The translations under genes and the position numbers were made by a program. The notes beneath the pieces are model-generated. The model was given only the letters and a program-made list of their open reading frames with translations. It did not search any database and was not told where the DNA came from. From NCBI GenBank assembly GCA_025358705.1, contig JANYII010000073.1:1-45258 (forward strand): a stretch of 45,258 nt of DNA. Reading direction: 5' to 3'. Shown piece after piece: positions 769 through 44,961 of this stretch; the first letter of the stretch is position 1; the number at the start of each line of letters is the position of its first letter. Source of the DNA: Betaproteobacteria bacterium (lineage in GTDB: Bacteria; Pseudomonadota; Gammaproteobacteria; Burkholderiales; SG8-39).

Positions 769-1725
769 ATGCCCTTGCTGCGATTGTCGATTTCTGCCGT
801 GCTGATCGGCCTCAGCGCCGGCGCGATGGCGCAGGCCTATCCCGGTAAACCGGTCAGCGTGATCATTCCATTTCCGCCAGGCGGAACCCTGGATTTTGTC
901 GGTCGCCTGCTAGCGCAGAAGCTCTCGGAGCAGATGGGGCAGAATTTCGTCGTCGAGAACCGTCCCGGCGGCAATGGAACCATCGGCGGCAGTGCGGTGG
1001 CAAAGGCGCAGCCCAACGGCTACACGCTGCTCTTCAACGCCTCGACGTTCACCACCGCGCCGATGACGATGAGCGCGCCACCTTACGACGTGGTCAGGGA
1101 CTTCGAGCAGGTCGCGCTGGTTGCACTCGCGCCGCTGGCCGTCGCAATCAGGAAGGACCTTGCGGCCACGGATGTAAGGAGTTTGATCGCCTATGGCAAA
1201 GCCAATCCCGGCAAGCTGACTTTTGCCATCGGATCCACAGGTTCGGCGGGCCACCTGGCCACGGAGCTTCTCAGGCGCGCGAGCGGCATCGAGTACCTGA
1301 TCGTGCCCTACAAGGGGACTGCGCCCGCTTTCCAGGACCTGGTCGGCGGAAGAATCGACGGCTTCATCGACCCGATCCTCGGGTCCGCCTCGTTTGCCAA
1401 GGCAGGACAGCTTAAGGTCATCGCGGTGACTTCCAAGGTCCGGGTGCAGGCCCTGCCGGATGTTCCCACCGTCGGCGAATCCATCCCGGGCTACGAGGCC
1501 TATAGCTGGTATGGCTTGTGGGGTCCGGCGAAGCTGCCCGGCGATATCGCGCAGCGCCTGAACGCGGAGGTCAACAAGGCATTGGCGACCGACATGCGCG
1601 ACAAGCTCATTCCGCAGGGCCTGCTGCTTACGCCGGGTTCCATCGAGGACTTTGCGCGCTTCCAGAAGGAAGACATGGCGCGCTCGGCGAAAATCATCGC
1701 CGATGGAAAGATCCGTGCCGAATGA
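769..1725 (+). CDS. Bug/TctC-family periplasmic solute-binding protein (tripartite tricarboxylate transporter receptor family)
   Basis: 318 aa. Signal peptide ends AMA-QAYPGKPV. Carries the hallmark N-terminal motif IIPFPPGGTLD. Length and the C-terminal lysine/acidic tail are typical of Bug proteins. Confidence 0.9.
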   Translation: MPLLRLSISAVLIGLSAGAMAQAYPGKPVSVIIPFPPGGTLDFVGRLLAQKLSEQMGQNFVVENRPGGNGTIGGSAVAKAQPNGYTLLFNASTFTTAPMTMSAPPYDVVRDFEQVALVALAPLAVAIRKDLAATDVRSLIAYGKANPGKLTFAIGSTGSAGHLATELLRRASGIEYLIVPYKGTAPAFQDLVGGRIDGFIDPILGSASFAKAGQLKVIAVTSKVRVQALPDVPTVGESIPGYEAYSWYGLWGPAKLPGDIAQRLNAEVNKALATDMRDKLIPQGLLLTPGSIEDFARFQKEDMARSAKIIADGKIRAE

Positions 1726-5404: not shown

Positions 5405-5412
5405 CCGTCCAC

Positions 5413-14426: not shown

Positions 14427-14440
14427 GGTCAGTCGCGCAT

Positions 14441-14995: not shown

Positions 14996-15011
14996 CTCCT
15001 GGTCGGGGCGG

Positions 15012-15989: not shown

Positions 15990-16000
15990 CGTGGTCTCCT

Positions 16001-24467: not shown

Positions 24468-25177
24468 GCCTTCACCGTGTCGGGGATCGTTAGCCGGCGG
24501 AACACCTCGTCCAGCGGCCGGCCCAGTTCATCGGGCGTGCCCTGGGCGACGATCCGGCCCCGGTCGATGATGATCGCGCGCGTGCAGGCGGCGTCCACTT
24601 CCTCCAGTATGTGGGTGGAAAACACCACCGCCTTGGTGCGCCCCAGCTCCTTGATCAGGTTGCGCACTTCGTGCTTCTGGTTCGGATCGAGGCCGTCGGT
24701 GGGCTCATCGAGGATCAGCACTTCGGGATCGTGGATCAGCGCCTGCGCGAGGCAGGTGCGGTGCTTGTAGCCCTTGGACAAGGTGTCGATGGACTGGTGC
24801 AGGACCGAGGACAGGAAGCACAGTTCCACCGATCGCGCGACGGCCTTGCGTTTCGCGGCGCCCGAGAGGCCGCGCAGCTCGGCGGCAAACTCGAGGAAAC
24901 CGCGCACCGTCATGTCGGTGTAGGCGGCGGCGTTCTCCGGCAGGTAGCCGATGAGGCGCTTGGCCTCCAGCGGCGATTCGGTCACGTCGTGGCCGCCGAC
25001 GCGCACGCGGCCGCCGGTGGGCGCGTAGTAGCCGGTAATCATGCGCATGGTGGTGGATTTGCCCGAACCGTTCGGTCCGAGAAAGCCGACCACTTCGCCG
25101 CGCTCGACCTTGAACGAGATGCCGTCCACGGCGCGTTTCGCGCCAAAAGCCTTGACGAGATTGTCTATTTGAATCAT
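24464..25177 (-). CDS. ABC transporter ATP-binding protein (GldA/CcmA-like)
   Basis: Walker A GPNGSGKST, signature LSKGYKHR, Walker B LILDEPTDGLD, H-loop STHIL. The start at MIQIDNL (codon 103 of the track ORF) gives a normal 237 aa. Confidence 0.9.
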   Translation of the reverse strand: MIQIDNLVKAFGAKRAVDGISFKVERGEVVGFLGPNGSGKSTTMRMITGYYAPTGGRVRVGGHDVTESPLEAKRLIGYLPENAAAYTDMTVRGFLEFAAELRGLSGAAKRKAVARSVELCFLSSVLHQSIDTLSKGYKHRTCLAQALIHDPEVLILDEPTDGLDPNQKHEVRNLIKELGRTKAVVFSTHILEEVDAACTRAIIIDRGRIVAQGTPDELGRPLDEVFRRLTIPDTVKA

Positions 25178-25247
25178 GGGGGGGTGCGCATTATCGCCGA
25201 AAACGTACCGCGGTTTAGAATGTAGTTTCCTGAGGAGGTTCCCTGCC

Positions 25248-26207
25248 ATGAAAAGACTTTCCGCACTGTTGTGCGCCCTGCTTGCATCGTTTGCCCTGCC
25301 CGGACAGGCGCAGCAATACCCGTCCAAGCCGGTGCGCATCGTCGTGCCCTTCGCTCCGGGCGGCGGCTCGGATTTCATCGCCCGTTTCATGGCGCAGCGG
25401 CTCACCGAGACGCTCGGCTCGCAGGTGATCGTCGAGAACAAGCCCGGCGCGGGCGGCGTGCTCGGCATCGAGCAGGGCGTCAAATCCCCCGCCGACGGCT
25501 ACACGCTCACGTTGATCGCCTCGAGCTATACGGTCAATCCGAGCATCTACAAGCTCAACTTCGATCCGGTGAACGACATCACGCCGATCATCCAGATGTC
25601 GCAGGGGCCGCTGATCGTCGTCGTCAACCCCTCGCTTCCAGTGAAGAACATCAAGGAATTCATCGCCCTCGCCAAATCGAAGCCGGGCGAAGTCACCTTT
25701 GCCTCCTCCGGGCAGGGCAGCGTGATCCATCTCGCGACCGAGCTGTTCGGCACCATGGCCAAGGTGAAAATGAACCACATCCCCTACAAGGGGACCGGTC
25801 CCGCGCTTACGGACACCCTTGCGGGACAGACGAACGTCTTCTTCAGCAGCGCGGCGAACGCGATGCCGCACATCAAGGGCGGCAAGCTGCGCGCCATCGC
25901 AGTGACGACCACCAAGCGCATCCCCGCGCTGCCCGAGGTGCCCACGATCGCCGAGTCGGGCGTGCCGGGATACGACGTGATCCTCTGGCACGGCCTGATC
26001 GGGCCGAAGGGACTGCCGCGCGCGGTGGTGGACCGCATCAACAGCGAAGTCACGAAATCGCTCAAGCTGAAGGAGACCGCCGAGCAACTGCAGAACGATG
26101 GCGTCGCACCCGCGGGCGGCCCGCCCGAGCAGTTCGCCGCACAGATCAAGAAGGAAATCGGCGTCTGGAAGAAGGTCGCGGCTGACGCCGGTGTCAAGCA
26201 GGAGTAA
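25248..26207 (+). CDS. Bug/TctC-family periplasmic solute-binding protein
   Basis: GAGGAGG Shine-Dalgarno. Signal peptide MKRLSALLCALLASFALPGQA-QQYPSKPV and the VVPFAPGGGSD motif. 319 aa. Coordinates follow the ORF-track frame. Confidence 0.9.
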   Translation: MKRLSALLCALLASFALPGQAQQYPSKPVRIVVPFAPGGGSDFIARFMAQRLTETLGSQVIVENKPGAGGVLGIEQGVKSPADGYTLTLIASSYTVNPSIYKLNFDPVNDITPIIQMSQGPLIVVVNPSLPVKNIKEFIALAKSKPGEVTFASSGQGSVIHLATELFGTMAKVKMNHIPYKGTGPALTDTLAGQTNVFFSSAANAMPHIKGGKLRAIAVTTTKRIPALPEVPTIAESGVPGYDVILWHGLIGPKGLPRAVVDRINSEVTKSLKLKETAEQLQNDGVAPAGGPPEQFAAQIKKEIGVWKKVAADAGVKQE

Positions 26208-27153
26208 CTGGCTGCTGGTGCTTGGCCTTGCCTGCGGCCCGGCGCTGGCGCAGAGCGGCTATCCTTCCCGCCCGGTTCAGTTCATCGTCACCTCGCCGCC
26301 GGGCGGGTCGAACGACATCTTCGCGCGCGCCGTCGCCAAGTGGCTGTCGGACGCGTTCGGCAAGCCCGTGGTGGTGGAAAACCGGGCTGGCGCTACCGGC
26401 TCGATTGGCGCCGCCTTCGTCGCCAAGGCGCCGGCCGACGGCCACAGCCTGCTGATGATTTCCTCGTCGTTCACGACCAGCGCGGCGATTCAGCCGAACG
26501 CGCCTTTCGACGCGGTGAAAAGCTTCGCCGCGGTGGCGATGATCGGCAAGGGCCCGCTGATCCTCGCGATATCGCCGAAGCTGCCGGCGAAGACGGCGGA
26601 GGAATTCTTCGCACTGGCGAAGGCGAAGCCGGGCGCGCTTAATTTCGCCTCCTCGGGGTCCGGCAGCATCAACCATTTCGCCACCGAGCTGCTGATCGAC
26701 GCGGCTGGGATCAAGATGACGCACGTTCCCTACAAGGGCATGGGTCCTGCGGTGACCGACCTCATCGCGGGCCACGTCGATGTCTTGATCGCGAGCGCTC
26801 CGTCCATGCTGCAGCAGGTCAAGAGCGGCAAGGTGCGGGGCCTGGGCGTGACGACCCTCAAGGCATCGCCGATCGCCCCGAACCTGCCGCCGCTTGCGGG
26901 CGCGGGCGCGCGCGGCTACGAGACCGAACTTTGGTGGGGCGTGCTGACCACCGCCGGTACGCCGAAGGATGTCGTCGCGAAACTGAATGCGGAGATCAAC
27001 AAGGCGCTCGTCACCGACGAAATGAAGGGATTCCTGCTGAACGAGGGCGCGGAACCGTCCCCCGTATCGCCGGAAGCGTTCGGCAGCCTTATCCGGAGCG
27101 ACATCGAGCGCTGGAAGAAGGTCGCGAAAGACGCCGGCATCCAGGCGGAATAG
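26191..27153 (+). CDS. Bug/TctC-family periplasmic solute-binding protein (tandem paralogue)
   Basis: The mature domain begins SGYPSRPVQFIVTSPPGGSND. The only plausible signal peptide, (M)SSRSNWLLVLGLACGPALA-Q, begins at in-frame GTG 26191, overlapping the upstream gene by 17 nt. ATG 26098 would add an Arg/Ser-rich extension inside the upstream gene. Confidence 0.8.
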   Translation: MSSRSNWLLVLGLACGPALAQSGYPSRPVQFIVTSPPGGSNDIFARAVAKWLSDAFGKPVVVENRAGATGSIGAAFVAKAPADGHSLLMISSSFTTSAAIQPNAPFDAVKSFAAVAMIGKGPLILAISPKLPAKTAEEFFALAKAKPGALNFASSGSGSINHFATELLIDAAGIKMTHVPYKGMGPAVTDLIAGHVDVLIASAPSMLQQVKSGKVRGLGVTTLKASPIAPNLPPLAGAGARGYETELWWGVLTTAGTPKDVVAKLNAEINKALVTDEMKGFLLNEGAEPSPVSPEAFGSLIRSDIERWKKVAKDAGIQAE

Positions 27154-27156
27154 TCG

Positions 27157-34501: not shown

Positions 34502-34783
34502 ATGATCCATTTCGTCGTGCATGAAGAAGGCGATGGCGTCGGCGTCGTCGTGGTCGAGGGCGTAAAGGCGGGCCAGGACCTGGTCGGCTGGATCATGGAG
34601 GACGACAAGGAGATCAAGATGACCGCGAAGAGCGACATCCCGATCGGCCACAAGCTGGCACTCAAGGACTACAAGCCGGGCGACACGGTGATCAAGTACG
34701 GCGTCGACATCGGCAAGGTGGTGGCGCCGATCGCGCGCGGCGAGCACACGCACGTGCAGAACCTCAAAACCAAGCGCTGGTAA
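34502..34783 (+). CDS. UxaA-family dehydratase small subunit (SAF domain; SuyA-like)
   Basis: GGAG lies 6 nt upstream. 93 aa. GDGVGVV...[42 protein letters not shown] matches the N-terminal SAF domain of altronate/galactarate dehydratases. Confidence 0.8.
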
Positions 34784-34806
34784 CGGAAGACGGAAGAAAA
34801 ACGCAC

Positions 34807-35976
34807 ATGGATCTGAAGAATTCGACGTTCTGGGGTTACAAGCGCGAGAACGGCCGCATCGGCGTGCGCAACCACGTTATCGTCCTGCCGGTAGACGACT
34901 TGTCCAACGCGGCCGCCGAGGCGGTGGCCCACAACATCAAGGGCACGCTCGCCATCCCGCACCCGTACGGCCGGCTGCAGTTCGGCGCCGACCTGGACTT
35001 GCACTTCAGCACGCTGATCGGCACCGGCTGCAACCCGAACGTGGCGGCGGTGGTGGTGATCTGCATCGAGGACGGCTGGGCGAAGAAGGTGGCCGACGCC
35101 ATCGCCGCCACCGGCAAGCCGGTCGCCTATTTCGGCATCGAGCAGCACGGCGACCACGACACCATCATGCGCGCCTCGAAGAAGGCCAAGGAATTCGTGC
35201 AGTGGGCCTCCGAGCTGCGCCGCGAGGAGCGGCCCCTGAAGGACCTGTGGGTATCGACCAAGTGCGGCGAATCGGATACGACCTCCGGCTGCGGCGCGAA
35301 CCCGACCGTGGGCAACGCGTTCGACAAGCTCTACCCGCACAAGGTGACGCTCGCTTTCGGCGAGACCACCGAGCTCACCGGTGGCGAGCACCTGGTGGCG
35401 GCGCGCTGCGCCAACGACGAGGTGCGGAAAAAGTTCCAGTTCATGTTCGACCGCTACCAGGCGATCATCGAGAAGCACAAGACCAGCGACCTCTCGGATT
35501 CGCAGCCGACCAAGGGCAACATCGCCGGCGGCCTGACGACCATCGAGGAGAAAGCGCTCGGCAACATCCAGAAAATCGGCCGCAAGTGCAAGGTCGACGG
35601 CGTGCTCGACAAGCATGAGCGGCCCACGGGTCCCGGCCTGTGGTTCATCGACTCGTCCTCCGCGGCGGCGGAAATGGTCACGCTGTGCGCGGCGGCCGGC
35701 TATACGGTGCACTTCTTCCCGACGGGGCAGGGCAACGTCATCGGCAACCCGATCCTGCCGAACATCAAGATCTGCGCGAATCCGCGTACCGTGCGGACCA
35801 TGTCCGAGCATGTCGACGTGGACGTCTCGGGCCTGCTGCGCAAGGAAATGAACCCCGACCAGGCGGGCGACGCACTGCTGGAATGCATGTTCCGCACCGC
35901 CAACGGCAGGCTCACTGCAGCGGAAGCGCTTGGGCATCGGGAATTCGTGCTTACCAGGTTGTACGAGTCGGCTTGA
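34807..35976 (+). CDS. UxaA-family dehydratase large subunit (SuyB-like catalytic domain)
   Basis: 389 aa. [19 protein letters not shown] and [15 protein letters not shown] are typical of the UxaA/GarD C-terminal domain. Follows the SAF subunit after 23 nt. Confidence 0.85.
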
Positions 35977-36668
35977 AGGTTTTAGTAAAAAGAAATTCAG
36001 CTTTTCAGGAATTCGAGGTCCCGCGCTATCCCAGCCAGACCGTGCTGGATGTCGTTACCTACATCCAGCGCGTCCTCGATCCGACGCTCGCCTACCGCTT
36101 CGCCTGCCGCGTCGGCATGTGCGGTTCCTGTGCGATGACGGTGAACGGCGTCGCGCGCTGGACCTGCCGTACGCACGTCGACAAGGTCGTCAAGAGCGAC
36201 CAGATGGAGATCGCGCCGTTGCGCAATCTGCCGGTGATCCGGGATCTCGTCACGGACATGCGCGAGTTCTTTGACAAGTGGGCTAAGGCGAAGGGGCAGT
36301 TCTCCGGTTCGCTTACGAAGAAGGAAGACTTTCAGAAAGTGAAACCGGATTCACCCAAGCGCGTCGCGGTGGATGCGGGCATCGAGTGCATCGGCTGCGC
36401 GGTCTGCTACAGTTCCTGCGACGTGGTCGCGCAGAATCCGGAGTATCTCGGGCCGGCGGCGCTGAATCGCGCCTGGACTTTGGTGAAAGATGAAAGAGAT
36501 TCGATAACCATCGAAAGACTGCGCGCGGTGGCCGGCGACGCGGGCTGCCACTCCTGCCATACGCATATGAGCTGCACCGAACATTGCCCGAAGCAGATTT
36601 CCCCGACCGCCGCCATTGCCGGATTGAAGAGGGAAGTGTCTATGGCTTTGTTCAGAAAAATCTTGTGA
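35973..36668 (+). CDS. Succinate dehydrogenase/fumarate reductase iron-sulfur subunit-like (SdhB-like paralogue)
   Basis: TTG start in a TTGA overlap with the upstream stop. Three cluster motifs: [15 protein letters not shown]...C (2Fe-2S), [11 protein letters not shown] (4Fe-4S) and [15 protein letters not shown] (3Fe-4S type). 231 aa. Confidence 0.85.
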
Positions 36669-37003
36669 ATGTAAGGGCGCAGGCCATCCTCTGGACTGCC
36701 CAGCGCGCGAGTGCCGCGGTGCTCGGGCTTTGCGTGCTTGTGCACCTCGCGACCATGATCTATGCGGTGCGCGGCGGCTTGACGGCGGCGGAGATTCTGA
36801 CCCGCACTCACGGTAGCGTTGCCTGGTTCGCGTTCTATTCGGTATTCGTGCTGGCCATCGTGGTGCACGTGCCGATCGGCCTGCGTTCGGTGCTCGGCGA
36901 GTGGCTTGCATGGCGTAGTCCGTCGCGGGACTGGGCGCTGGCGGTATTGGCCGGATTCCTGTGGACGATGGGCATGCGCGCCGTCCTGGCGGTGTTTGGA
37001 TGA
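36665..37003 (+). CDS. SdhD-like hydrophobic membrane anchor subunit
   Basis: GTGA overlap. 112 aa with three helices. QRASAAVL and VVHVPIGLRSVLGEW align with E. coli SdhD LVRATAIVL and LIHAWIGMWQVLTDY (heme-ligand His). Confidence 0.75.
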   Translation: MNVRAQAILWTAQRASAAVLGLCVLVHLATMIYAVRGGLTAAEILTRTHGSVAWFAFYSVFVLAIVVHVPIGLRSVLGEWLAWRSPSRDWALAVLAGFLWTMGMRAVLAVFG

Positions 37004-38232
37004 ATTTTCCCTCACGGAACTTTGCGCTGGTTCACCGGCTCTCAGGTATTGCGCTGGCGCTGTTCCTGCCGCTGCATTTCTGGGCGCTGGGGCAGGCGCT
37101 GCAGGGAGATGCGAAGCTAGAATCCTTCCTGCGCTGGACCGACCAGCCGCTCGTCAAGGCAAGCGAGTGGGCCATCGTGCTGCTGCTGGCGATTCACCTT
37201 ACTGGAGGCGTAAGAATCCTCATGATCGAATTCCTGCCCTGGCGTGAATGGCAGAAAACCCTCGCTGCTGTCGCGGCAGCGACGGCGTTGGCGATCGGCC
37301 TCCTGTTTGCGCTTTCGTCCACCGCGCATGCGCAGAACTGGCCCCAAAAATCCGTGCGCTTCATCGTGCCGTTCCCGCCCGGCGGCGCGACCGACATTTC
37401 GGCGCGCATGGTCGGCCAGAAACTGGCCGAGATCTGGGGACAGACCGTGGTCATCGAGAATCGCGGCGGCGCGGGCGGCGGCGTCGGCGCGGCGGAGGCG
37501 GCGCGCGCCGCGCCCGATGGCTACACCTTCTTCTTTCCCTCGGGTTCGGTGATGACGGCCAACCAGCACATCTACGCCAAGATGGCCTACAACCCGGAGA
37601 AGGATTTCGTGCCGGTCACCAACGTGGTGTCGGGCCCGCAGGTGCTGGTGGTGGCCGCGAACTCGCCCTACAAGAGCGTCAAGGAACTGATTGATGCCGC
37701 CAGGGCGCAGCCGGGCAAGCTGACCTTCGGCCATGCCGGGATCGGCTCGCAGACGCATCTCGCCGCGGAAAACTTCGTCAATGCAGCCGGGATCAATGCG
37801 GTGCAGGTGCCCTACAAGGGCGAAGGCCCGTCGCTGGTGGGCCTGGTCGGCGGCGACACCACTTTCGCCGTCACCAACGTCGCGGCTGCGATCGGCCACA
37901 TCGGTTCGGGGCGCCTGCGCGCGCTCGGCGTGACGAGCAAGGTGGAGTTCGCGCAACTGCCAGGCGTGCCGCCGATCGCGAAGACCCTGCCGGGCTTCGA
38001 GAACACCGGCTGGTTCGGCATCGTCGCGCCCACCGGCACTTCCAGGGACATCATCCAGAAGGTGTACCAGGACACGAAGAAGGCGCTCGAATCCACCGAG
38101 ATGCGGGCGCGCCTCTATGTGCAGGGGCTCGCGCCCGTCGGCAATACGCCCGAGGAGATGGGCCACGCCATGAAGGAAGAAACCGCGTTGTGGGCGCGTG
38201 TGGTGCGGGAACGGAACATCAAAGTAGAGTGA
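37000..38232 (+). CDS. In-frame fusion of an SdhC-like cytochrome b556 anchor (N-terminal ~105 aa) and a Bug/TctC solute-binding domain (C-terminal ~300 aa)
   Basis: ATGA overlap with the sdhD-like stop. LVHRLSGIALALF and AIHLTGGVRILMIEF align with E. coli SdhC ILHRVSGVITFVA and AYHVVVGIRHLMMDF. There is no stop after the third helix. The ORF continues as AHA-QNWPQKSVRFIVPFPPGGATD, a complete Bug domain. Confidence 0.8.
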   Translation: MNFPSRNFALVHRLSGIALALFLPLHFWALGQALQGDAKLESFLRWTDQPLVKASEWAIVLLLAIHLTGGVRILMIEFLPWREWQKTLAAVAAATALAIGLLFALSSTAHAQNWPQKSVRFIVPFPPGGATDISARMVGQKLAEIWGQTVVIENRGGAGGGVGAAEAARAAPDGYTFFFPSGSVMTANQHIYAKMAYNPEKDFVPVTNVVSGPQVLVVAANSPYKSVKELIDAARAQPGKLTFGHAGIGSQTHLAAENFVNAAGINAVQVPYKGEGPSLVGLVGGDTTFAVTNVAAAIGHIGSGRLRALGVTSKVEFAQLPGVPPIAKTLPGFENTGWFGIVAPTGTSRDIIQKVYQDTKKALESTEMRARLYVQGLAPVGNTPEEMGHAMKEETALWARVVRERNIKVE

Positions 38233-39104
38233 GAGTCGATCTGCAGCAGGTCGAGGAGGCCGCCAAGGAACTCTACATCCGGGCGCTTAAGCTGCTGCCG
38301 CCCGACATCAAGCAGGGCTTCGACCGGCTCGTGGCGGACGAGTCGAACGCCGGCGCGCAGCGCGTGCTGGGCACCATGTTGAAGAACATCACGGTTGCCG
38401 AAGATACGCAGACGCTCCTGTGCCAGGACACCGGCATCCCGATCTACAACGTGCGCATCGGCCGCGGCGTCGAGGTGGACGGTTTCGGGCTGCAGGAGGC
38501 GATCCGGCGCGGCTGCGCGCGTTCGACGCGCGAATATTCGTTCCGCTCCTCGATCGTGCATCCGACCACGCGCGTCAACGACCAGACCTCCACCGGGCGG
38601 GGCGTGCCGATCATCCACGTTGAATTCGCGGACCGGGAAAACATCCTGGAGATCGAGATGATCCCCAAGGGCTCCGGCTCGGAAAACAATTCCTGGCTGA
38701 AGATGGCGATTCCCGCCGAGGGTATCGACGCGATCAAGACCTTCGTCATCGACTGCGTGCTCGATGCGGGCGGCAAGACCTGCCCGCCGACCATCGTCGG
38801 CGTGGGCGTCGGCGGCACCTCGGACCTGTGCGTGCACCTGGCCAAGCAGGCGGCGACGCGCGCGCTGGGCTCGCGCTGCGAGGATCCCGAGGGTGCAAAG
38901 CTCGAGGAAGCGCTGACGCGCGCGGTCAACATGCTGGGTGTCGGGCCGCAGGGCCTGGGCGGCGATTCGACCGCCTTCGCGGTGCATGTCGAAACCGCCG
39001 CGACGCATATCACCATGAACCCGGTGGCGGTGAACATGCAGTGCCACTCTGCGAGGCGCGCGCGCGTCACGTTCCGGCCGGGAGGCATGGAATATGGTTT
39101 TTAG
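38229..39104 (+). CDS. Fe-S hydro-lyase alpha subunit, tartrate/fumarate (class I fumarase/TtdA) family
   Basis: GTGA overlap. 291 aa. LCQDTGIPIY, IPKGSGSENNS and GGKTCPPTIVGVGVGGTSD (Cys ligands) are typical of the N-terminal catalytic domain of class I hydro-lyases. Confidence 0.85.
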   Translation: MRVDLQQVEEAAKELYIRALKLLPPDIKQGFDRLVADESNAGAQRVLGTMLKNITVAEDTQTLLCQDTGIPIYNVRIGRGVEVDGFGLQEAIRRGCARSTREYSFRSSIVHPTTRVNDQTSTGRGVPIIHVEFADRENILEIEMIPKGSGSENNSWLKMAIPAEGIDAIKTFVIDCVLDAGGKTCPPTIVGVGVGGTSDLCVHLAKQAATRALGSRCEDPEGAKLEEALTRAVNMLGVGPQGLGGDSTAFAVHVETAATHITMNPVAVNMQCHSARRARVTFRPGGMEYGF

Positions 39105-39660
39105 GGTCCTGCTGCTGTTCTTCATCGCGTTGCCGTCCTTCGGCGCGGAAGTCGCCGGCGTAACGATTCCCGACACGGACCAGCAGCTGGTGCTGAACGG
39201 CGCAGGACTGCGCAAGCGCGCGTTCTTCCAGGTCTACGCCATCGGGCTTTACCTTTCCCAGAAGAAAACATCTGCCGTCGATGCGATCAATGCGGCGGGA
39301 CCGAAGCGCGTCGCGCTGCACATGCTGCGCGACGTGGATGCCGACCAGCTGTCCGGCGCGCTCGCCGACAGCATCAGGGACAACCTGAGCGAGTCCGAGG
39401 TAAAGGCGCTCGAGCCGCGCGTGAAGCAGCTCGTGGCGATCATGGCCGACATGAGGGAAGCGAGGAAGGGCATGCGCATCACGCTTGACTGGCTGCCGGC
39501 CGCGGGGACCCAGGTGACAGTGGAGGGCAAGCCGGCAGGCGCGCCGATTCCCGGCGACGATTTCTATCGCGCCCTGCTGAAGATCTGGCTGGGCGACAAG
39601 CCGGTGCAGGACGACCTGAAGAGGGCGCTGCTAGGTGAAATGCGCGGAGAGAAGCAGTAA
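39094..39660 (+). CDS. Secreted chalcone-isomerase-like (Chalcone_3 type) protein
   Basis: Signal peptide MVFRVLLLFFIALPSFGA-EVAG. LNGAGLRKRAFFQVYAIGLYL and FYRALLKIWLGDKPVQDDLKRALLG are hallmark CHI-like segments. Overlaps the alpha-subunit gene by 11 nt. Confidence 0.7.
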   Translation: MVFRVLLLFFIALPSFGAEVAGVTIPDTDQQLVLNGAGLRKRAFFQVYAIGLYLSQKKTSAVDAINAAGPKRVALHMLRDVDADQLSGALADSIRDNLSESEVKALEPRVKQLVAIMADMREARKGMRITLDWLPAAGTQVTVEGKPAGAPIPGDDFYRALLKIWLGDKPVQDDLKRALLGEMRGEKQ

Positions 39661-39662
39661 CC

Positions 39663-40271
39663 ATGGCGCACCATGAACTCAGTCCGGCACTGACCGAGAC
39701 GCAGGCGCGCGCGCTGCGCGTCAACGATACGGTGACGCTGAACGGCACGCTGTTCGGCATCCGCGACGCGACGCAGATCCACATGTTCGACCGCGGCCGC
39801 AAGACGCGCTTCGATCTCTCGGGCCACGCGGTCATCCACACCGCGCCCAACGTGAAGAAAGTCGAAAAGAGCGCCGCCTTTCCGGCCGGATATCAGCCTT
39901 CATGCATCGGCACCACCACCAGCGACCGCATGGAGCGCTTCACGCGGCCGCTCCTAGCGGAATATGGGGTAAGGCTGGTGATCGGCAAGGGCGGCCTGCG
40001 CGACGATTCAATGAAGGCTTTTGGTGAAATGGGTGGCGCCTACCTCGCGATCGTCGGCGGCGCGGCCGCGCTGGAGACGACCTGGGTGGAAGCGATCGAG
40101 GACGTGGACCTGGACGACTTGCATCCGGAATCGCTGTGGAAATTCCGCGTGCGCGGTTTCGGGCCGCTGGTGGTCGCCATGGACAGCCACGGCGGCAGCC
40201 TCTACTCGATGGTGAACCAGGCCGCGCGCGAGCAGCGCGCGGCGGCATTGCGCGCATTGGGCGTGCGGTAA
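39663..40271 (+). CDS. Fe-S hydro-lyase beta subunit, tartrate/fumarate (class I fumarase C-terminal/TtdB) family
   Basis: 202 aa. GTLFGIRDATQIHM, IGTTTSDRME and VIGKGGL motifs of the swivel-domain beta subunit. Starts 2 nt after the CHI-like stop. Confidence 0.85.
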   Translation: MAHHELSPALTETQARALRVNDTVTLNGTLFGIRDATQIHMFDRGRKTRFDLSGHAVIHTAPNVKKVEKSAAFPAGYQPSCIGTTTSDRMERFTRPLLAEYGVRLVIGKGGLRDDSMKAFGEMGGAYLAIVGGAAALETTWVEAIEDVDLDDLHPESLWKFRVRGFGPLVVAMDSHGGSLYSMVNQAAREQRAAALRALGVR

Positions 40272-40295
40272 AATCAAAAAACGATTGGAGAAAAA

Positions 40296-41258
40296 ATGAG
40301 AAGAATTCTGAGCGTCCTGGCGGCTGCCGCCGTGGTGGTTTCCGGAGCGGCCGTTGCGCAGCCCAAGGTGAACCTTTCGATCGCCACCGGCCCCACTGGC
40401 GGCGTGTACTACCCGCTCGGCGGCGGTCTTGCCAACGTGTTGTCCAAGTACGTTCCAGGCTATGCCGCCAACTCCGAAGCGACGGCGGGATCGGTCGCCA
40501 ACATCCAGCTCATGGACCAGAAGAAGTCGGATGTCGCATTCACGATGGCGGATGCGGCCTGGGATGGCTACAAGGCGCAGGGCAAGTTCGCGGCCGGCGC
40601 GGTGCCGCTGCGCACGCTGATGGTCGCCTACCCGAACCGCATGCACGTCGTCACGATCGAGGGCCGCGGCATCGAGAAGCTCGCCGACCTCAAGGGCAAG
40701 CGCGTATCGACGGGCGCGCCGAACAGCGCCACGGAACTCATGACGCAGCGCCTGCTGGAGGCGGTCGGCATGGACATGACCAAGGATTTCCGCCGCGAGC
40801 GCCTGACGCCGGAGAAATCAGTGGATGCGATCAAGGACGGCAAGCTGGACGCGGTTTTCTTTGTTGCCGGCATCCCGGTGTCCTCGTTCACCGACCTGGG
40901 CGCGACGCCCGGCACCAAGATCAAGCTGATCGACCATGCCGAGGCGGTGGCGCCGATGAACGCGAAATACGGCCCGCTCTACATCACCGACGTGATTCCG
41001 GCGAAGTCCTATCCCGGCCAGGAGAAGGTGAACAATGTAGCGACGGTCCAGAACCTGATCATCGCGCGCGAGGACATGCCCGTTGACGTCGCCTACAACA
41101 TCGTCAAGGTGATCTTCGAGAGGAAGGACGACTTGGTCGCGGTGCACAAGGAAGCGCTTAGCTTCGACCTGAAGAACCAGACCAAGACGGGCTCGCCGAT
41201 CCCGTACCATCCGGGCGCGATCAAGTATTTCGCCGAGAAGGGCATCAAAGTCAACTGA
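40296..41258 (+). CDS. TAXI-family TRAP transporter solute-binding protein
   Basis: Signal peptide MRRILSVLAAAAVVVSGAAVA-Q. IATGPTGGVYYPLGGGLA and TAGSVANIQLM are TAXI hallmarks. 320 aa. Confidence 0.9.
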   Translation: MRRILSVLAAAAVVVSGAAVAQPKVNLSIATGPTGGVYYPLGGGLANVLSKYVPGYAANSEATAGSVANIQLMDQKKSDVAFTMADAAWDGYKAQGKFAAGAVPLRTLMVAYPNRMHVVTIEGRGIEKLADLKGKRVSTGAPNSATELMTQRLLEAVGMDMTKDFRRERLTPEKSVDAIKDGKLDAVFFVAGIPVSSFTDLGATPGTKIKLIDHAEAVAPMNAKYGPLYITDVIPAKSYPGQEKVNNVATVQNLIIAREDMPVDVAYNIVKVIFERKDDLVAVHKEALSFDLKNQTKTGSPIPYHPGAIKYFAEKGIKVN

Positions 41259-43241
41259 GTGGCTGAAATCGATGCCGGCGCTCTCAAAAAGGCCGAAGAG
41301 TTCGTAGAGCAGGAAGAAGGGGCGACCCACCGGTTCGCCGGCTGGTGGGGGACGGCGCTATTCGCAGTCGCCGTCGCGATGTCGGTGTTCCACCTGTATG
41401 CGGCGTACGGCAACATCACCACTACCACGCTGCGCTACGCGCACGTGGCCTTCATCCTGTTCCTGTCGTTCACCCTGTTTCCGTGGCGCCCGCGGGCGCG
41501 GCACCACTTCTCCTGGGGAGATCTCGTGCTTGCGCTGCTAAGCGTGGCCTGCATGGTCTACGCCGTGTGGGGCGGCGATGACTTCCTGGACCGAAGCACG
41601 CTGCCGAACACCTGGGACAACATCATGGGTGTCGCGCTCGTGGTGCTGGTGCTGGAAGCGGCGCGGCGCACCACCGGCTGGATCATGCCGCTGGTGGTGG
41701 TGGCATTCCTCGCCTACTCGATGGTGGGGCCATGGCTGCCCGCGCCGTGGACGCACCGCGGTTACGACATCGGCAGGCTGGTCGGCACGATGTACATGAC
41801 GCTGGAGGGCATTTTCGGCACCGCGGTGGACGTGTCCTCGACGCTGATCATCCTGTTCACGATTTACGGCGCGATCCTGCAATTCTCGGGCGCTGGCAAG
41901 TTCTACCTTGATTTTTCCTTCGCCGCGCTGGGGCGCAAGCCCACCGGCGCCGGCCGCACCATCGTGCTTGCTTCTTTCCTGCTGGGCGGCCCCTCGGGTT
42001 CCGGGGTCGCGACCACGGTCACGCTCGGCACGGTGGCCTACCCGATGCTCGCGAAGGCAGGGTACGAGAAGAACGCCGCGGGTGGCCTGCTGGCCGCGGG
42101 CGGCCTGGGCGCGATCCTGTCGCCGCCGGTGCTCGGGGCCGCCGCGTTCCTGATCGCCGAGTTCCTCAAGATCAGCTACCTGGACGTCATCAAGATGGCG
42201 GCGATCCCCACCTGCCTGTACTACCTGTCGCTGCTGCTCATGGTCGAGATCGACGCGCGCAAGTACGGCATGAAGATGGTCGACGTGAAGGGCGCGCAAA
42301 GCGTCTGGCAGCTGACGAAGACGCGGGGCTTTCACTTCACCTCGCTGATCGCGATCGTGGTGTTCATGCTGATCGGCTTTTCGCCGATCGGCTCGGTGTT
42401 CTGGGCCACGGTGGTGGCGTTCTTCGCCAGTTTCATCCACCGCGACTGCGCGCTGATCGATTTCGGGATGCTGGTGCGGCGGCCAAAGGGCTGGGTGGGC
42501 TCGCTGCTCACCGAATCGAAGATCATGAAGGCGCTGGAGGCGGGCTCGGTGGGCATGATCAACATCGGCGCGACCTGCGCGGCGGCGGGCCTGATCGTCG
42601 GCGTGGTGACGCTGACCGGCCTCGGCCTGCGCTTCTCGGAAATCGTCATCGGCTACGCCGGCGGCAACCTGGCGCTGACGGCGATCTTCACCGCGCTCAT
42701 CGTTTGGGTGATCGGCCTCGCGGTGCCGGTGACGGCGAGCTACATCATCTGCGCGGTGATCGCCGCGCCCGCGCTGATCAAGCTGGGCGTGCCGGACTAC
42801 GCGGCGCACATGTTCATTTTCTACTACGCAGTCCTGTCGGAAGTCTCGCCGCCGACTGCTTTGTCGCCTTTCGCGGCAGCGGCGATCACCGGCGGCGATC
42901 CCTACAAGACGACGCTGCAGTCCTGGAAGTACACGCTGCCGGCGTTCATCGTGCCGTTCATGTTCGTGCTCGACCCGATCGGCGTCGGCCTCCTGCTCTA
43001 CATCCCCAAGGGCGGCAGCTGGATGAGCGTGGTCGAGATCACGGTGCTCGCGGTGATCGCGCTGGTGGCGCTCGCCGCGGCGGCCGAGGGCTGGCTGTTC
43101 ACGAAAACCACGCTGCTCGAGCGCCTGGCGCTGATTGCCGCCGGCATCCTCGTGCTCACGCCCGTGGCACTGAACGACGCGATCGGCGTCGCGCTGCTCG
43201 GCGCAGTGATGGCGATCCAGTTCTTCAGATCCCGTGCGTGA
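41259..43241 (+). CDS. TRAP transporter fused permease (TAXI-associated DctQ-DctM fusion)
   Basis: GTG immediately follows the TAXI gene stop. 660 aa polytopic protein with an N-terminal acidic cytoplasmic segment, then more than 14 helices, as in TAXI-type fused permeases. Confidence 0.9.
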   Translation: MAEIDAGALKKAEEFVEQEEGATHRFAGWWGTALFAVAVAMSVFHLYAAYGNITTTTLRYAHVAFILFLSFTLFPWRPRARHHFSWGDLVLALLSVACMVYAVWGGDDFLDRSTLPNTWDNIMGVALVVLVLEAARRTTGWIMPLVVVAFLAYSMVGPWLPAPWTHRGYDIGRLVGTMYMTLEGIFGTAVDVSSTLIILFTIYGAILQFSGAGKFYLDFSFAALGRKPTGAGRTIVLASFLLGGPSGSGVATTVTLGTVAYPMLAKAGYEKNAAGGLLAAGGLGAILSPPVLGAAAFLIAEFLKISYLDVIKMAAIPTCLYYLSLLLMVEIDARKYGMKMVDVKGAQSVWQLTKTRGFHFTSLIAIVVFMLIGFSPIGSVFWATVVAFFASFIHRDCALIDFGMLVRRPKGWVGSLLTESKIMKALEAGSVGMINIGATCAAAGLIVGVVTLTGLGLRFSEIVIGYAGGNLALTAIFTALIVWVIGLAVPVTASYIICAVIAAPALIKLGVPDYAAHMFIFYYAVLSEVSPPTALSPFAAAAITGGDPYKTTLQSWKYTLPAFIVPFMFVLDPIGVGLLLYIPKGGSWMSVVEITVLAVIALVALAAAAEGWLFTKTTLLERLALIAAGILVLTPVALNDAIGVALLGAVMAIQFFRSRA

Positions 43242-44961
43242 AGTTTCCACCGACATCCTGATCCTCGGTTCGGGCGGGGCGGGGCTATTCGCCGCGCTGC
43301 ACGCGCATAAGGCACAACTGCGGACGGACCCGTCGCTCTCGATCACCGTCGCGGTGAAGGGCCTGCTCGGCAAATGCGGCTGCACGCGCATGGTGCAGGG
43401 CGGCTACAACGTCGCGCTGGCGCAGGAGGATTCGATCGAGCGCCACTTCATGGACACCATCGAGGGCGGCAAGTGGCTGCCCGACCAGGAGCTGGCCTGG
43501 AAACTGGTCGTGCTTTCCATCGAAAGAATCAGAGAACTGGAAAACGAGCTGGGGTGCTTCTTCGACCGCAATCCGGATGGCACGGTGCACCAGAAGGCTT
43601 TCGCCGGGCAGACGTTCGACCGCACGGTGCACAAGGGCGACCTCACCGGCATCGAGATCATCAATCGGCTCGCCGAGCAGGTGTGGGCTCGCAAGATCAA
43701 CAGGCTGGAAGAACACCGTGCCGTTGAACTTATCAAGGACAAAAGCGGTTCGGCGATCGCGGGCGTGCTCTTCATCGACATGCGCACGGGCGAATATGTC
43801 TTCGTCCGCGCGAAGGCGGTGCTGCTCGCGACCGGCGGCGGTCCGACCATGTACAAGTACCACACGCCCTCGGGCGACAAGTCCTGCGATGGCCTGGCAA
43901 TGGCGCTGCGCGCCGGGCTGCCGCTGCGCGACATGGAGATGGTGCAGTTCCATCCGACCGGCCTCTACGCCGGCACGCACACGCGCATGACCGGAACGGT
44001 GCTGGAAGAAGGCCTGCGCGGTTCGGGCGGCTACCTGCTGAACGGCGCCATGGAGCGCTTCATGCCGAAGTACGACCCCAAGGCCGAGCGCGCCACGCGC
44101 GATTTCGTCTCGCGCGCCATGTTCACGGAGATGAGGGCAGGGAATACCAGTCCTAATGGGGGGCTCTTTATTTCCATGAAGCATCTGAATCAAGATATGG
44201 TTAAAAAACAATTCCGCGGGATGGTCGAACGCTGCGCGGATTGCGGCTTCGACCTCGCCGGCGGCCTGGTTGAAGTGGTGCCGACCGCGCACTACATGAT
44301 GGGTGGCGTCGAGTTCGCGCCCGATTGCAGCACCCAGCTCAAGGGACTCTATGTCGCGGGCGAGGATGCGGGCGGCGTGCACGGCGCCAACCGCCTGGGC
44401 GGCAACGGCGTGGCCAATTCCACGGTGTTCGGCGCCGTCGCAGGTGACGTGATGGCCGAATGGGTCAGGAAGGAAGATTTCAGGGAAGTCGATTTGGTTT
44501 CCGTCGAAAAGGCAGTTCAGTCCTGTGAACCCCGGATCTCCAAAACCCACGGCTCTCTCGAACCGCTGCGCGAACGGCTCTACGAAGTGATGTGGAACAA
44601 GGTCGGCATCATCCGCGACGCCGCCGGCCTGCGCGCCGGGCTCTCGGAGCTCGCGGCGATCGAAAGCGAGCTGGAAAGCACGGGCATCGCGGACGCCAAC
44701 CGCGCCTTCAACCTGACCTGGCACGACTGGCTGAACCTGAAGAGCCTGGCGCAGACCAGCCGCGCGATCGCCGAAGCCGCGCTCGCGCGCACCGATTCGC
44801 GCGGCGCCCACTACCGGGAAGACTTTCCGGATGCCGGGCCGCTGGAAAGCTCGTGCTACACGAGCCTGAAAATCCGGGGTTCGGGATTGGAAATCGCGAT
44901 GAAGCCCGTGGCATTCACGCGTGTCCGGCCGGGCGAATCCCTACTGGTCAGCCACCTTTAG
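43234..44961 (+). CDS. Succinate dehydrogenase/fumarate reductase flavoprotein-like subunit (SdhA/FrdA/NadB family paralogue)
   Basis: ILILGSGGAGL FAD motif. Catalytic set QFHPTG, LRGSGGYLLN..ERFM, PTAHYMMGG and GVHGANRLGGNG. 575 aa. Overlaps the permease gene by 8 nt. Confidence 0.85.
   Translation: MREVSTDILILGSGGAGLFAALHAHKAQLRTDPSLSITVAVKGLLGKCGCTRMVQGGYNVALAQEDSIERHFMDTIEGGKWLPDQELAWKLVVLSIERIRELENELGCFFDRNPDGTVHQKAFAGQTFDRTVHKGDLTGIEIINRLAEQVWARKINRLEEHRAVELIKDKSGSAIAGVLFIDMRTGEYVFVRAKAVLLATGGGPTMYKYHTPSGDKSCDGLAMALRAGLPLRDMEMVQFHPTGLYAGTHTRMTGTVLEEGLRGSGGYLLNGAMERFMPKYDPKAERATRDFVSRAMFTEMRAGNTSPNGGLFISMKHLNQDMVKKQFRGMVERCADCGFDLAGGLVEVVPTAHYMMGGVEFAPDCSTQLKGLYVAGEDAGGVHGANRLGGNGVANSTVFGAVAGDVMAEWVRKEDFREVDLVSVEKAVQSCEPRISKTHGSLEPLRERLYEVMWNKVGIIRDAAGLRAGLSELAAIESELESTGIADANRAFNLTWHDWLNLKSLAQTSRAIAEAALARTDSRGAHYREDFPDAGPLESSCYTSLKIRGSGLEIAMKPVAFTRVRPGESLLVSHL

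Follow-up and report, generated by a model that had tools for sequence, protein, structure and literature searches.

A lineage-specific in-frame fusion of an SdhC-like respiratory anchor and a Bug/TctC solute-binding protein, with candidate signals for continued production of free Bug protein

Results and Discussion

Within the window (by which we mean the whole 45,258-nt stretch of DNA that was analyzed), a single open reading frame joins an SdhC-like respiratory membrane anchor to a complete Bug/TctC solute-binding domain. Comparison with related loci shows this ORF to be a true, lineage-specific in-frame fusion of two ancestrally adjacent genes. The explanation that we consider probable, at roughly 0.65, is that the fusion arose by deletion and that free Bug protein would still be made, both by cleavage of the long product and by initiation at an internal start that evolved after the fusion. 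The partners would be the SdhC-like heme-b/quinone anchor of an accessory SDH/FRD-like complex and an orphan Bug/TctC protein. The deletion that joined sdhC to bug would have brought helix 3 of the anchor against the surviving c-region of the Bug signal peptide, SSTAHA/Q, and afterwards an internal start would have formed in the helix-2 codons, consisting of a GGAGG that includes a rare GGA codon, a codon 75 changed from Ala to Met, and AT-rich, weakly structured mRNA.

Two products are predicted. The first would be full-length SdhC-Bug, inserted N-in/C-out and cut by signal peptidase I after Ala111, giving a three-helix anchor with a 6-residue tail and free Bug. The second would be a 336-aa pre-Bug starting at Met75, whose signal peptide would consist of loop 2 and helix 3; after export it would be cleaved where the first product is, so that both routes would lead to the same soluble periplasmic Bug protein. 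The free protein would act as in unfused relatives, probably binding a carboxylate substrate of the cluster and handing it to a transporter encoded elsewhere. Helix 3 would then be a case of dual-use coding, being at once a structural helix of the anchor and a signal peptide's hydrophobic core.

The fused protein

The fused gene and its parts are as follows.

37000..38232, + strand, fused ORF, SdhC-like anchor and Bug/TctC in frame, 410 codons plus stop
37000..37317, + strand, SdhC-like domain, residues 1-106, from family and homologue matches
37255..37314, + strand, helix 3 (K86-L105), homologous to the final helix of free-standing family members
37315..37335, + strand, junction S106-S-T-A-H-A111 / Q112, leftover c-region and predicted signal peptidase I site
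37333..38229, + strand, mature Bug/TctC domain (Q112-E410), from PF03401 and PDB matches

The frame begins at an ATG (37000) that overlaps the TGA of the upstream sdhD-like ORF, forming an ATGA, and ends at a TGA (38230-38232); coordinates and sequence agree with the single 410-codon ORF that had been described. Pfam matches were found to Sdh_cyt (PF01127; residues 11-101, 36.7 bits, cut-off 25.8) and to TctC (PF03401; residues 135-406, 227.6 bits, profile positions 2-273 of 274). The co-occurrence of both families on one polypeptide, which the original prediction had proposed as a check, is therefore found here, and the same fused architecture recurs, at 79-96% identity, in over 120 protein clusters drawn from independent assemblies. 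A search of the literature for fusions of TctC with SDH, for both Pfam accessions together, or for FbcH returned nothing on an SdhC-Bug architecture. An AlphaFold2 model built from a 19-sequence alignment was of low confidence (pLDDT 57.9, pTM 0.46) and placed helices at residues 4-34, 50-76 and 83-110. The current database names for such proteins are 'succinate dehydrogenase cytochrome b556 subunit' or 'tripartite tricarboxylate transporter substrate-binding protein', and neither fits the probable products of the locus.

The SdhC-like domain has three transmembrane helices (about 14-32, 55-78 and 86-105), with hydropathy peaks of the fused protein near residues 67 and 97, and carries the HRLSG motif at residues 12-16. 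A phmmer search matched it to E. coli SdhC (1nek_C, E = 4.9e-5), and the ungapped alignment sets 'laihltggvrilmief' opposite 'layhvvvgirhmmmdf'. His66 falls on chain residue 84 of 1nek_C; this is the position of His84, which we take to be the heme ligand of E. coli SdhC, and it is a Met in 2wu2_C, a sequence that differs at the residue and presumably represents the engineered His84Met mutant. On the basis of this alignment His66 is the candidate heme-ligand equivalent. H12, R13, S15, G16, H26 and H66 are invariant in the homologue alignment. The Sdh_cyt match, the HRLSG motif and the aligned helix-2 His bear out the proposed SdhC-like N-terminus as a three-helix anchor.

Free-standing homologues (112-122 aa, identity up to 65%) align through helix 3 and end 2-5 residues later, which identifies helix 3 as the SdhC family's own helix. 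Within the fused clade, dN/dS was 0.10 (dS about 0.8) over codons 12-65, a stretch translated only as part of the full-length product, and His12, His26 and His66 are retained, indicating that the anchor is still needed. The match to the canonical SdhC equivalog TIGR02970 (47.3 bits) lies below its cut-off of 52.3. As the flavoprotein of the cluster likewise lies below equivalog cut-offs, we file the complex as SDH/FRD-like and accessory, not as the housekeeping SDH.

On the C-terminal side, the near full-length PF03401 match is accompanied by PDB matches over residues 111-409 to BugE (2dvz, 4e-65), the terephthalate-binding protein (8hka/8hk9/8hkb), Bug27 (2qpq) and BugD (2f5x), with E values from 4e-65 to 1.5e-48 across 2DVZ, 2QPQ, 2F5X and 8HKA; the Bug domain is complete, as had been claimed. 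No TctA or TctB domains were found among the window ORFs scanned. Orphan Bug proteins without nearby tctA/tctB are common in Burkholderiales, and the only fusions reported in a review of TTT systems are between TctA and TctB, with none of the binding protein (PMC5812351). The window also contains three free-standing Bug genes (769..1725, within 25176..26207, and within 26098..27153), which are present with the mature N-termini previously quoted.

Gene neighborhood

The fused gene is part of a tightly packed cluster, the other members of which are listed here.

34502..35976, + strand, UxaA/GarD-type dehydratase, two genes, GD_AH_second and GD_AH_C, head of the cluster
35973..36668, + strand, sdhB-like iron-sulfur protein, Fer2_3 and Fer4_8, TIGR00384 (dhsB) 196.7 bits (cut-off 88)
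36665..37003, + strand, sdhD-like second anchor, 112 aa, PF01127 28.1 bits, TIGR02968 weak
38229..43241, + strand, downstream genes, from Pfam and NCBIfam matches
43234..44961, + strand, sdhA/FrdA-like flavoprotein, FAD_binding_2 and Succ_DH_flav_C, far end of the cluster

The dehydratase consists of a 93-aa small protein (34502..34783) and a 389-aa large subunit (34807..35976), both of which match the galactarate dehydratase model TIGR03248 far below cut-off. Read from the sequence, the sdhB-like gene probably starts with a TTG, in overlap with the UxaA-like stop codon. The sdhD-like ORF starts with a GTG in a GTGA overlap with sdhB, and is found upstream of the fusion at the loci L001, L002 and L083. 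Downstream, a class I fumarase-type alpha subunit (probable GTG at 38229, in a GTGA overlap with the fused ORF) is followed by a chalcone-isomerase-like protein, the fumarase-type beta subunit, a TAXI solute-binding protein and a fused TRAP permease. All NCBIfam equivalogs matched the sdhA-like protein under cut-off, the best being TfrA (508 bits vs 718). L001 and L002 have the same UxaA pair, downstream gene order and sdhA-like position, and with them the same set of SdhD-, SdhB- and SdhA-type partners. Succinate, methylsuccinate/mesaconate, tartrate and sulfolactate-type compounds were considered as candidate substrates of the cluster, and none was singled out.

Origin of the fusion

Related loci were called fused or separate by tblastn with explicit stop counting, which gave 16 fused and 66 separate loci in addition to the window; the comparison of orthologous loci suggested by the original prediction thus found separate adjacent genes in 66 and the fusion in 16 plus the window. 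At 41 of the 66 unfused loci the tblastn match runs across a stop codon, and at the remaining 25 the two genes are in different frames. Fourteen of the 80 related species-representative genomes listed carry the fusion, and these are uncultured Burkholderiales. The same junction occurs in ENA, JGI, NCBI and Logan assemblies, and the presence of the same fusion in independent assemblies counters the concern that a stop or indel had been missed.

In unfused loci, sdhC ends in '...FALAL*' and is followed by a short SD spacer and then by a bug ATG that opens a protein of the form 'MKxxK...AQAQ|SWPQKPV'. The junction DNA measures 136 nt in fused loci and 211-224 nt, most often 214, in unfused loci. 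The ~78 nt that are missing correspond to the sdhC stop, to the spacer with the RBS and the ATG of bug, and to the n- and h-regions of its signal peptide. Judging from these sequences, sdhC and bug were ancestrally separate neighbors, bug carrying its own signal peptide, and this is still the commoner arrangement; the majority state of the relatives suggests that the fusion arose by deletion.

Fused alleles were monophyletic (support 94) in the tree of the SdhC domain, and clean monophyly was obtained only in this tree, that is, for the segment bearing the event. Fused loci were scattered in a neighbor-joining tree of the Bug domain. A tree of the flanking genes (SdhB, SdhD and FumA) placed most of them together, with the unfused L013 nested beside the window. 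We read this conflict as probably reflecting recombination or limited signal, and not several origins. The L001-type junction (FALALTATSAHAQ) has 3 additional codons and could reflect a second event or an insertion acquired later. An exhaustive search of representative sequences yielded no match of ~410 aa; the 50% cluster of the fused family is possibly represented by another protein, and this search is unusable for counting independent SdhC-Bug fusions elsewhere.

The junction as a predicted cleavage site

The transition from helix 3 through an AHA-type junction into Bug is as described in the original prediction, SSTAHA / QNWPQKSVRFIVPFPPGGATD. Only this c-region is left of Bug's own Sec signal peptide; the n- and h-regions, present in the 66 unfused orthologues, are gone. 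The motif reads AHA in 92 of 120 homologues, AHG in 9, AQA in 7, ALA in 2, VHA in 2 and ARA in 1, and all 120 have A or V at -3 and A or G at -1, while positions -2 and -4 vary. A Q at +1 is conserved, and it is followed by a linker of variable length (1-15 aa). The motif agrees with the cleavage sites of the unfused orthologues and of the three free-standing Bug genes of the window. The N-in/C-out topology of the anchor would place the Bug domain in the periplasm, as had been argued, and the combination of an N-in/C-out segment with a small-x-small motif is what would be expected of a polyprotein processed by signal peptidase.

A putative start site within sdhC codons

The elements of the putative internal start lie within the codons for helix 2 and the loop that follows.

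37195..37245, + strand, AT-rich codon patch, codons 66-82, with rare CTT, ACT, GGA, GTA and AGA
37204..37208, + strand, GGAGG, Shine-Dalgarno-like, codons Gly69-Gly70 (GGA GGC)
37222..37224, + strand, internal in-frame ATG (Met75), proposed start of a 336-aa pre-Bug

The putative signal peptide of a pre-Bug starting at Met75 would be made up of MIEFLPWREWQK, helix 3 and SSTAHA. Codon 75 is ATG in 17/17 fused loci and an Ala or Leu codon in 66/66 unfused loci, although this association counts as one co-occurrence and not as 17 independent ones because the fused alleles descend from one event. It is the sole alignment column that separates fused from unfused alleles. Among 120 fused proteins Met75 was present in 118, and the two exceptions are identical to each other over this stretch. 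At L083, the locus of the protein P0038, codon 75 is ATA, and a GTG occurs at codon 73, 5 nt after a GGAGGAG. The GGA at codon 69 was found in 15 of the 16 fused loci listed vs 3 of the ~59 unfused loci listed, and GGA makes up 5.7% of Gly codons elsewhere in these ORFs.

The patch as a whole differs from its surroundings and from its unfused counterparts. Its GC3 is 0.59, whereas the remainder of the fused genes has 0.80-0.88 and the equivalent patch of unfused orthologues 0.90. The predicted energy of the anti-SD duplex is -9.6 kcal/mol in fused vs -6.4 kcal/mol in unfused loci, and the 61-nt folding energy is -11.8 vs -25.9 kcal/mol, with control windows at about -19.5. Because dS within the fused clade is about 0.8-1.1, the nucleotides of the patch are not conserved simply for lack of time. 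An SD-like element, a start codon and weak predicted mRNA structure coincide at this site and are conserved beyond neutral expectation. The proposal that GGAGG and the ATG at 37222 yield a second product was the best-supported part of the original prediction, since these signals are specific to the fused lineage and conserved in it.

Some features count against our explanation. The spacer between GGAGG and ATG75 is 13 nt, compared with 5-10 nt at unfused bug starts; a weaker purine-rich AGRA element lies 5 nt from ATG75. The n-region of the putative Met75 signal peptide is without net positive charge, and the roughly 19 hydrophobic residues of helix 3 are many for a signal peptide that is to be cleaved. 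Signal peptidase can fail to cut after long h-regions.

Free or tethered Bug protein

The length of helix 3 also bears on whether the Bug domain is cleaved off at all. If it were not, Bug would stay on the dehydrogenase-like anchor as a membrane-tethered binding protein, and periplasmic capture or sensing of a ligand would be coupled to the complex, or to a transporter close by, with the Met75 product, if made, as an extra free pool. The retention of the fusion in at least 14 species-level genomes and more than 120 protein clusters speaks for such a permanent tether, as does helix 3 itself, which is full-length and whose ~19 hydrophobic residues favor a signal-anchor over a cleaved signal; the Pro/Ala/Gln-rich linkers of 8-15 aa that follow the junction in some fused alleles could act as flexible tethers. 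We nevertheless consider permanent tethering unlikely, and do not favor it or any coupling based on it. Ancestrally, and still in the majority of relatives, Bug is free and exported; the AxA/Q motif, for which a tether has no use, is kept in 120/120 homologues while its neighbors vary; and a putative internal start that would give an untethered copy evolved with the fusion. In the commonest linker, ~8 residues separate the proposed cut from the first beta-strand (as placed with the low-confidence AlphaFold2 model), leaving little freedom to open, close and dock. In SDH-type enzymes the catalytic site is on the cytoplasmic side, which precludes direct channelling.

A weaker version, in which a fraction of the full-length protein escapes signal peptidase and leaves Bug tethered to a quinone-linked dehydrogenase anchor, seems to us equally doubtful. 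If it were true, a membrane-bound binding protein would link periplasmic carboxylate capture or sensing, a respiratory-type complex and the neighboring transporter; the Met75 product would be the diffusible pool, and one frame would give two isoforms. The original prediction had proposed that the fusion serves to couple periplasmic ligand capture or sensing with the dehydrogenase, and this part of it is not borne out as the leading interpretation, given the two-gene ancestry, the kept AxA motif and the putative internal start. The retained signal peptidase motif, the separate Bug start and the two-gene ancestry point instead to continued production of free Bug and not to an obligatory tether.

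The codon patch might also be read as a programmed translational pause that aids co-translational insertion of helices 2 and 3 ahead of the large periplasmic domain, with Met75 incidental and free Bug made by signal peptidase only. The patch lies about 10-35 codons ahead of the exported domain, its GGAGG is 13 nt from the ATG and so sub-optimal for initiation, and E. coli SdhC has a Met at the aligned position, so that Met75 needs no special cause. A pause is quite improbable, however, given that Met75 is the one residue separating all fused from all unfused alleles, that the weak mRNA structure is centered on ATG75, the usual mark of initiation sites, and that L083, which is without ATG75, has its codon-73 GTG 5 nt after GGAGGAG. 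An assembly artefact (a missed stop or indel) was plausible beforehand for a single assembly, as separate adjacent sdhC and bug are commoner in relatives; alternatively, decay would have left the SdhC remnant as a mere long export signal for Bug. Either is extremely improbable in view of the same junction in the independent ENA, JGI, NCBI and Logan assemblies, the dN/dS of 0.10 at a dS of about 0.8 over codons 12-65 of the fused clade, the retained His, Arg and Ser of the SdhC motifs, and the tight ATGA/GTGA coupling kept with sdhD and the fumarase-type gene.

If the model of deletion followed by continued release of free Bug holds, this locus is a natural, datable case of a bacterium coping with a gene-welding deletion: a transmembrane helix of a respiratory anchor took on a second role at the hydrophobic center of a signal peptide, and rare codons together with one Ala-to-Met change turned upstream coding sequence into a new RBS and start. 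As naturally matched counterparts, the fused and unfused alleles could be used to learn under which conditions a transmembrane helix is processed like a signal peptide, and they are also informative on the origin of internal starts and the limits on overlapping codes. A new coupling of solute binding to respiration is not revealed on present evidence.

Comparison with known systems

The anchor resembles E. coli SdhC (1NEK chain C) in its three helices, the HR(V/L)SG that opens helix 1, the aligned helix-2 His, and its encoding near SdhD-, SdhB- and SdhA-like genes. It differs in being a divergent paralogue under the NCBIfam equivalog cut-off, in belonging to an accessory cluster that also encodes UxaA-type and fumarase-type hydro-lyases as well as a TAXI-TRAP transporter, and in the 300-residue periplasmic domain that follows helix 3. 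The Bug part matches BugE, Bug27, BugD and the terephthalate-binding protein over its full length, shares the AxA/Q-x-[WY]P-x-[KR]-x-V mature N-terminus, and is an orphan as family members often are; in contrast to them it is without its own n- and h-regions, and its export would have to use SdhC helix 3.

GlnPQ- and OpuA-type ABC importers of Gram-positive bacteria have solute-binding domains fused to transporter components. They are similar in that a short linker joins a binding domain covalently to a membrane protein, but their domain is fused to its own translocator and remains attached, whereas the partner here is a respiratory anchor and the release signals are conserved.

Another parallel in architecture is FbcH of Bradyrhizobium, a cytochrome b-c1 precursor reportedly found by Thony-Meyer and co-workers, in about 1989-1991, to be split at an internal signal sequence. 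In both, one ORF encodes a polytopic respiratory membrane subunit and then a periplasmic protein, and an internal N-in/C-out hydrophobic segment with a signal peptidase site is proposed to separate the parts. FbcH, however, joins two subunits of one complex, whereas SdhC and Bug are without known physical relation; its processing is said to have been shown experimentally, whereas cleavage of SdhC-Bug is predicted; and SdhC-Bug additionally has the putative internal start.

In-frame internal initiation sites have been mapped in bacterial genes by retapamulin ribosome profiling (Meydan et al., bioRxiv 10.1101/520783). As in those genes, an SD element and a start codon lie within a coding sequence and would give a shorter second product in the same frame. 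The present case would differ from them in that the shorter product would be a secreted pre-protein, that its signal peptide would share codons with a transmembrane helix of the longer product, and that the putative start arose alongside a dated fusion.

The fusion and its gene cluster

A single 410-codon open reading frame on the forward strand (ATG 37000 to TGA 38230-38232) joins an SdhC-like membrane anchor to a Bug/TctC solute-binding domain, as the original prediction had claimed. Pfam places Sdh_cyt (PF01127) on residues 11-101 (36.7 bits, cut-off 25.8) and TctC (PF03401) on residues 135-406 of the same polypeptide (227.6 bits). Residues 8-83 align gap-free to E. coli SdhC (1nek_C), with His66 opposite chain residue 84, which we take to be the haem-ligand His84; 2wu2_C has Met there. 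Residues 111-409 match the solved structures of BugE (2dvz, 4e-65), terephthalate-binding proteins and Bug27, and the three free-standing Bug genes reported for the window, with their quoted N-termini, were all found. The N-terminal part falls within the Sdh_cyt family but is no equivalog of housekeeping SdhC, and the C-terminal part is of the Bug/TctC type and no longer has its own signal peptide. The fusion sits inside a tightly coupled gene cluster, in which its ATG shares bases with the TGA of the upstream 112-codon ORF.

Gene order in the cluster
34502..35976, UxaA/GarD-type dehydratase, two genes
35973..36668, SdhB-like Fe-S subunit, TTG start
36665..37003, SdhD-like anchor (the 112-codon ORF)
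37000..38232, forward strand, the fusion
from a probable GTG at 38229 (GTGA overlap), class I fumarase-type alpha subunit
then, in order, chalcone-isomerase-like protein, fumarase-type beta subunit, TAXI binding protein, fused TRAP permease
43234..44961, SdhA/FrdA-like flavoprotein

None of the cluster's SDH-like subunits reaches the NCBIfam equivalog cut-off for housekeeping SDH, and they are therefore treated here as an accessory SDH/FRD-like complex within a carboxylate-catabolic cluster. Neither tctA nor tctB was found among the window ORFs scanned, which makes the Bug domain an "orphan", a status common in Burkholderiales (PMC5812351).

The SDH-like genes are split (35973-37003 and 43234-44961), with B-D-C followed by five other genes and then flavoprotein A at the far end, an arrangement unusual for SDH/FRD operons; the best NCBIfam match of the flavoprotein is the thiol:fumarate reductase TfrA, below cut-off. 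The chalcone-isomerase-like gene (PF16036; 39094-39660), whose product has an apparent signal peptide, lies between the fumarase-type alpha and beta subunit genes and was found in the related loci L002 and L083, and is missing from L001. The dehydratase comprises a 93-aa small and a 389-aa large protein, the same layout as in the two-subunit sulfolactate sulfo-lyase SuyAB. TTT systems have been tied to sulfolactate metabolism (PMC5812351).

Solute-binding-protein-dependent carboxylate transporters are very abundant in the window. Two tandem Bug genes are followed by genes for a CoA-transferase of family III and a lyase of the HpcH/HpaI type (25176-29275), and the set looks like an itaconate/citramalate-type module; a lyase of this type also lies upstream of the operon in L001. 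Genes for DUF993 and a TauD-family dioxygenase adjoin a DctP/Q/M TRAP transporter (2414-7211), and a second TRAP set is found at 13143-16004 on the minus strand.

Conservation and origin of the fusion

A protein search found more than 120 clusters of 400-426 aa that are 79-96% identical to the fusion; both Pfam domains occur in almost all of them. These came from ENA, JGI, NCBI and Logan assemblies, and three contigs with fused homologues keep the same neighbour genes as the window, so an artefactual fusion was rejected. Database names for the fused proteins refer to one domain or the other, and no description of an SdhC-TctC fusion was found in the searchable literature.

A genome scan using one genome per species yielded 199 relatives, of which the best 80 loci were analysed, every one from uncultured Burkholderiales or Betaproteobacteria MAGs. 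Stop codons and frames were counted over 82 loci, these 80 plus L001 and L002. True in-frame fusions accounted for 16/82 (14 from the scan plus L001 and L002); at 41/82 the tblastn match runs across a stop codon, and at 25/82 sdhC and bug are in different frames. In the 41 stop-crossing loci, sdhC terminates after ...FALAL; 3-25 codons of spacer, including a clear SD, separate it from bug, which has an ATG and a signal peptide of its own (MKxxK-hydrophobic-AQAQ↓SWPQKPV, the arrow marking predicted cleavage). Separate genes at 66 loci, against 16 fused, argue that the sdhC-bug adjacency is old and general and the fusion derived. The junction measures 136 nt where the genes are fused and about 214 nt where they are not. 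The difference, about 78 nt, was lost in frame and took in the stop, the spacer, the SD and ATG of bug, and both the n-region and the h-region of the Bug signal peptide; the c-region alone remains, attached to the last transmembrane helix of the anchor (FAL-SSTAHA↓Q). Both flanks of the lost stretch are GC-rich Ala/Leu codons (GCGCTx), making a slip between short repeats plausible. In 41 of the 66 unfused loci (among L013-L082), bug lies in the sdhC frame with 1-3 stop codons between, more than the one-third that chance would give.

This last helix (helix 3, K86-L105) might have been a Bug signal peptide substituted for an anchor helix. Residues 1-112, searched exhaustively with phmmer, returned 436 representatives, the closest being free-standing proteins with lengths of 112-122 aa and identities of up to 65%. 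Because these homologues align across helix 3 and stop 2-5 residues after it (e.g., at ...AAGLVFALNLF), substitution was rejected, and helix 3 is, judging from these alignments, the anchor family's own third helix.

A neighbour-joining (NJ) tree built from the SdhC domain recovers a single clade of fused alleles (support 94) that excludes every unfused one, which indicates that the fusion arose once; residue 75 is the only alignment column that divides fused (Met) from unfused (Ala or Leu). The Bug-domain and flanking-gene trees are less clean, and in the latter the unfused locus L013 adjoins the window. At L013 (4363-4576; MAG Baikal-deep-G90), sdhC and bug are separate, codon 75 is of the unfused type (GCG), and GC3 in the surrounding patch is 0.94; its SdhB/SdhD/FumA genes and Bug domain nonetheless group beside the window, inside the fused clade. 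This placement suggests either a chimeric MAG or recombination across the junction, and we attribute the tree conflict to one of these.

Selection on the anchor and conservation of the predicted cleavage site

Codons 12-65 are translated from the ATG 37000 product only. Their dN/dS of 0.10 within the fused clade, together with retention of the His, Arg and Ser residues that are invariant in the anchor family, argues that the full-length protein is made and matters, and that the anchor is still functional.

The junction retains the pattern of a predicted signal peptidase I site. Positions -3/-1 are A(V)/A(G) in 120/120 fused homologues (AHA 92, AHG 9, AQA 7, ALA 2, ARA 1, VHA 2), positions -2, -4 and +2 vary, and an invariant Gln follows the motif, then a linker of 1-15 residues. 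Unfused orthologues and the Bug genes of the window itself show the same pattern. In one fused homologue, P0096, the motif appears twice (SSTAHAQSSGTARAQWPHK), so that two AxA↓Q sites in tandem are candidates for cleavage.

A proposed internal start at codon 75

A second product had been proposed from an internal GGAGG (37204-37208) and ATG (37222); these coordinates are exact in the window sequence, and codon, SD and folding patterns specific to fused loci strongly support the proposal.

Features around codon 75 in fused and unfused loci
Codon 75: fused, ATG 17/17; unfused, Ala 65, Leu 1 (ATG 0/66)
Codon 69 GGA, among the loci listed: fused, 15/16; unfused, 3 of about 59
GC3, codons 66-82: fused, 0.59; unfused, 0.90
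Anti-SD pairing upstream of codon 75: fused, -9.6 kcal/mol; unfused, -6.4 kcal/mol
Folding energy, 61 nt centred on codon 75: fused, -11.8 kcal/mol; unfused, -25.9 kcal/mol

Control windows fold at about -19.5 kcal/mol in fused and unfused loci alike. Around codon 75, unfused alleles are predicted to fold more strongly (-25.9 kcal/mol) than their own-locus controls (-19.3), so the fused lineage, at -11.8, has shifted this region from unusually structured to unusually open.

The Gly69-Gly70 pair is invariant and is written GGA GGN in fused loci, creating GGAGG; elsewhere in the same ORFs GGA makes up 5.7% of Gly codons. Arg72 is mostly AGA or AGG in fused loci (AGA elsewhere, 1.8% of Arg codons), and GC3 outside the patch in the same genes is 0.80-0.88. 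Synonymous divergence inside the fused clade is high (dS about 0.8-1.1), which argues that the rare codons are under maintenance and not merely inherited. Met75 is present in 118/120 fused proteins; the other two (P0036 and P0038), identical in sequence over this stretch, have Ile75 and retain GGAGGAG and AGA. At the locus of P0038 (L083, 1681-1740), ATA stands in for ATG at codon 75, and codon 73 is a GTG that lies 5 nt past GGAGGAG and may be a shifted internal start. The predicted Met75 product would consist of MIEFLPWREWQK (n-region), helix 3 (h-region), SSTAHA↓Q (c-region) and Bug. These comparisons show SD, ATG and open mRNA to be a lineage-specific combination that is, on codon evidence, maintained. 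Weak points of the model are the 13-nt GGAGG-ATG spacing, the uncharged n-region, an h-region long for a signal peptide, and the single evolutionary origin of the fused alleles.

Proposed mechanism and comparison with known systems

E. coli SdhC has an N-in/C-out topology. The full-length fusion would insert in the same way and be cut after Ala111, yielding a normal anchor and a released Bug protein, and ribosomes would also start at Met75 to make a conventional pre-Bug with helix 3 as signal peptide. The role of free Bug would then be that of Bug in the 66 unfused relatives. The original prediction suggested that the tethered Bug domain couples periplasmic ligand capture or sensing to the dehydrogenase; the fusion itself stands, and coupling of function through a tether, though possible, is not the favoured reading.

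With cleavage and an internal start, the fusion would neatly illustrate both dual-use coding and compensatory evolution following gene fusion. It would work, like FbcH, as a membrane polyprotein split by signal peptidase. It would also carry an internal start, like the in-frame nested genes known in bacteria (10.1101/520783).
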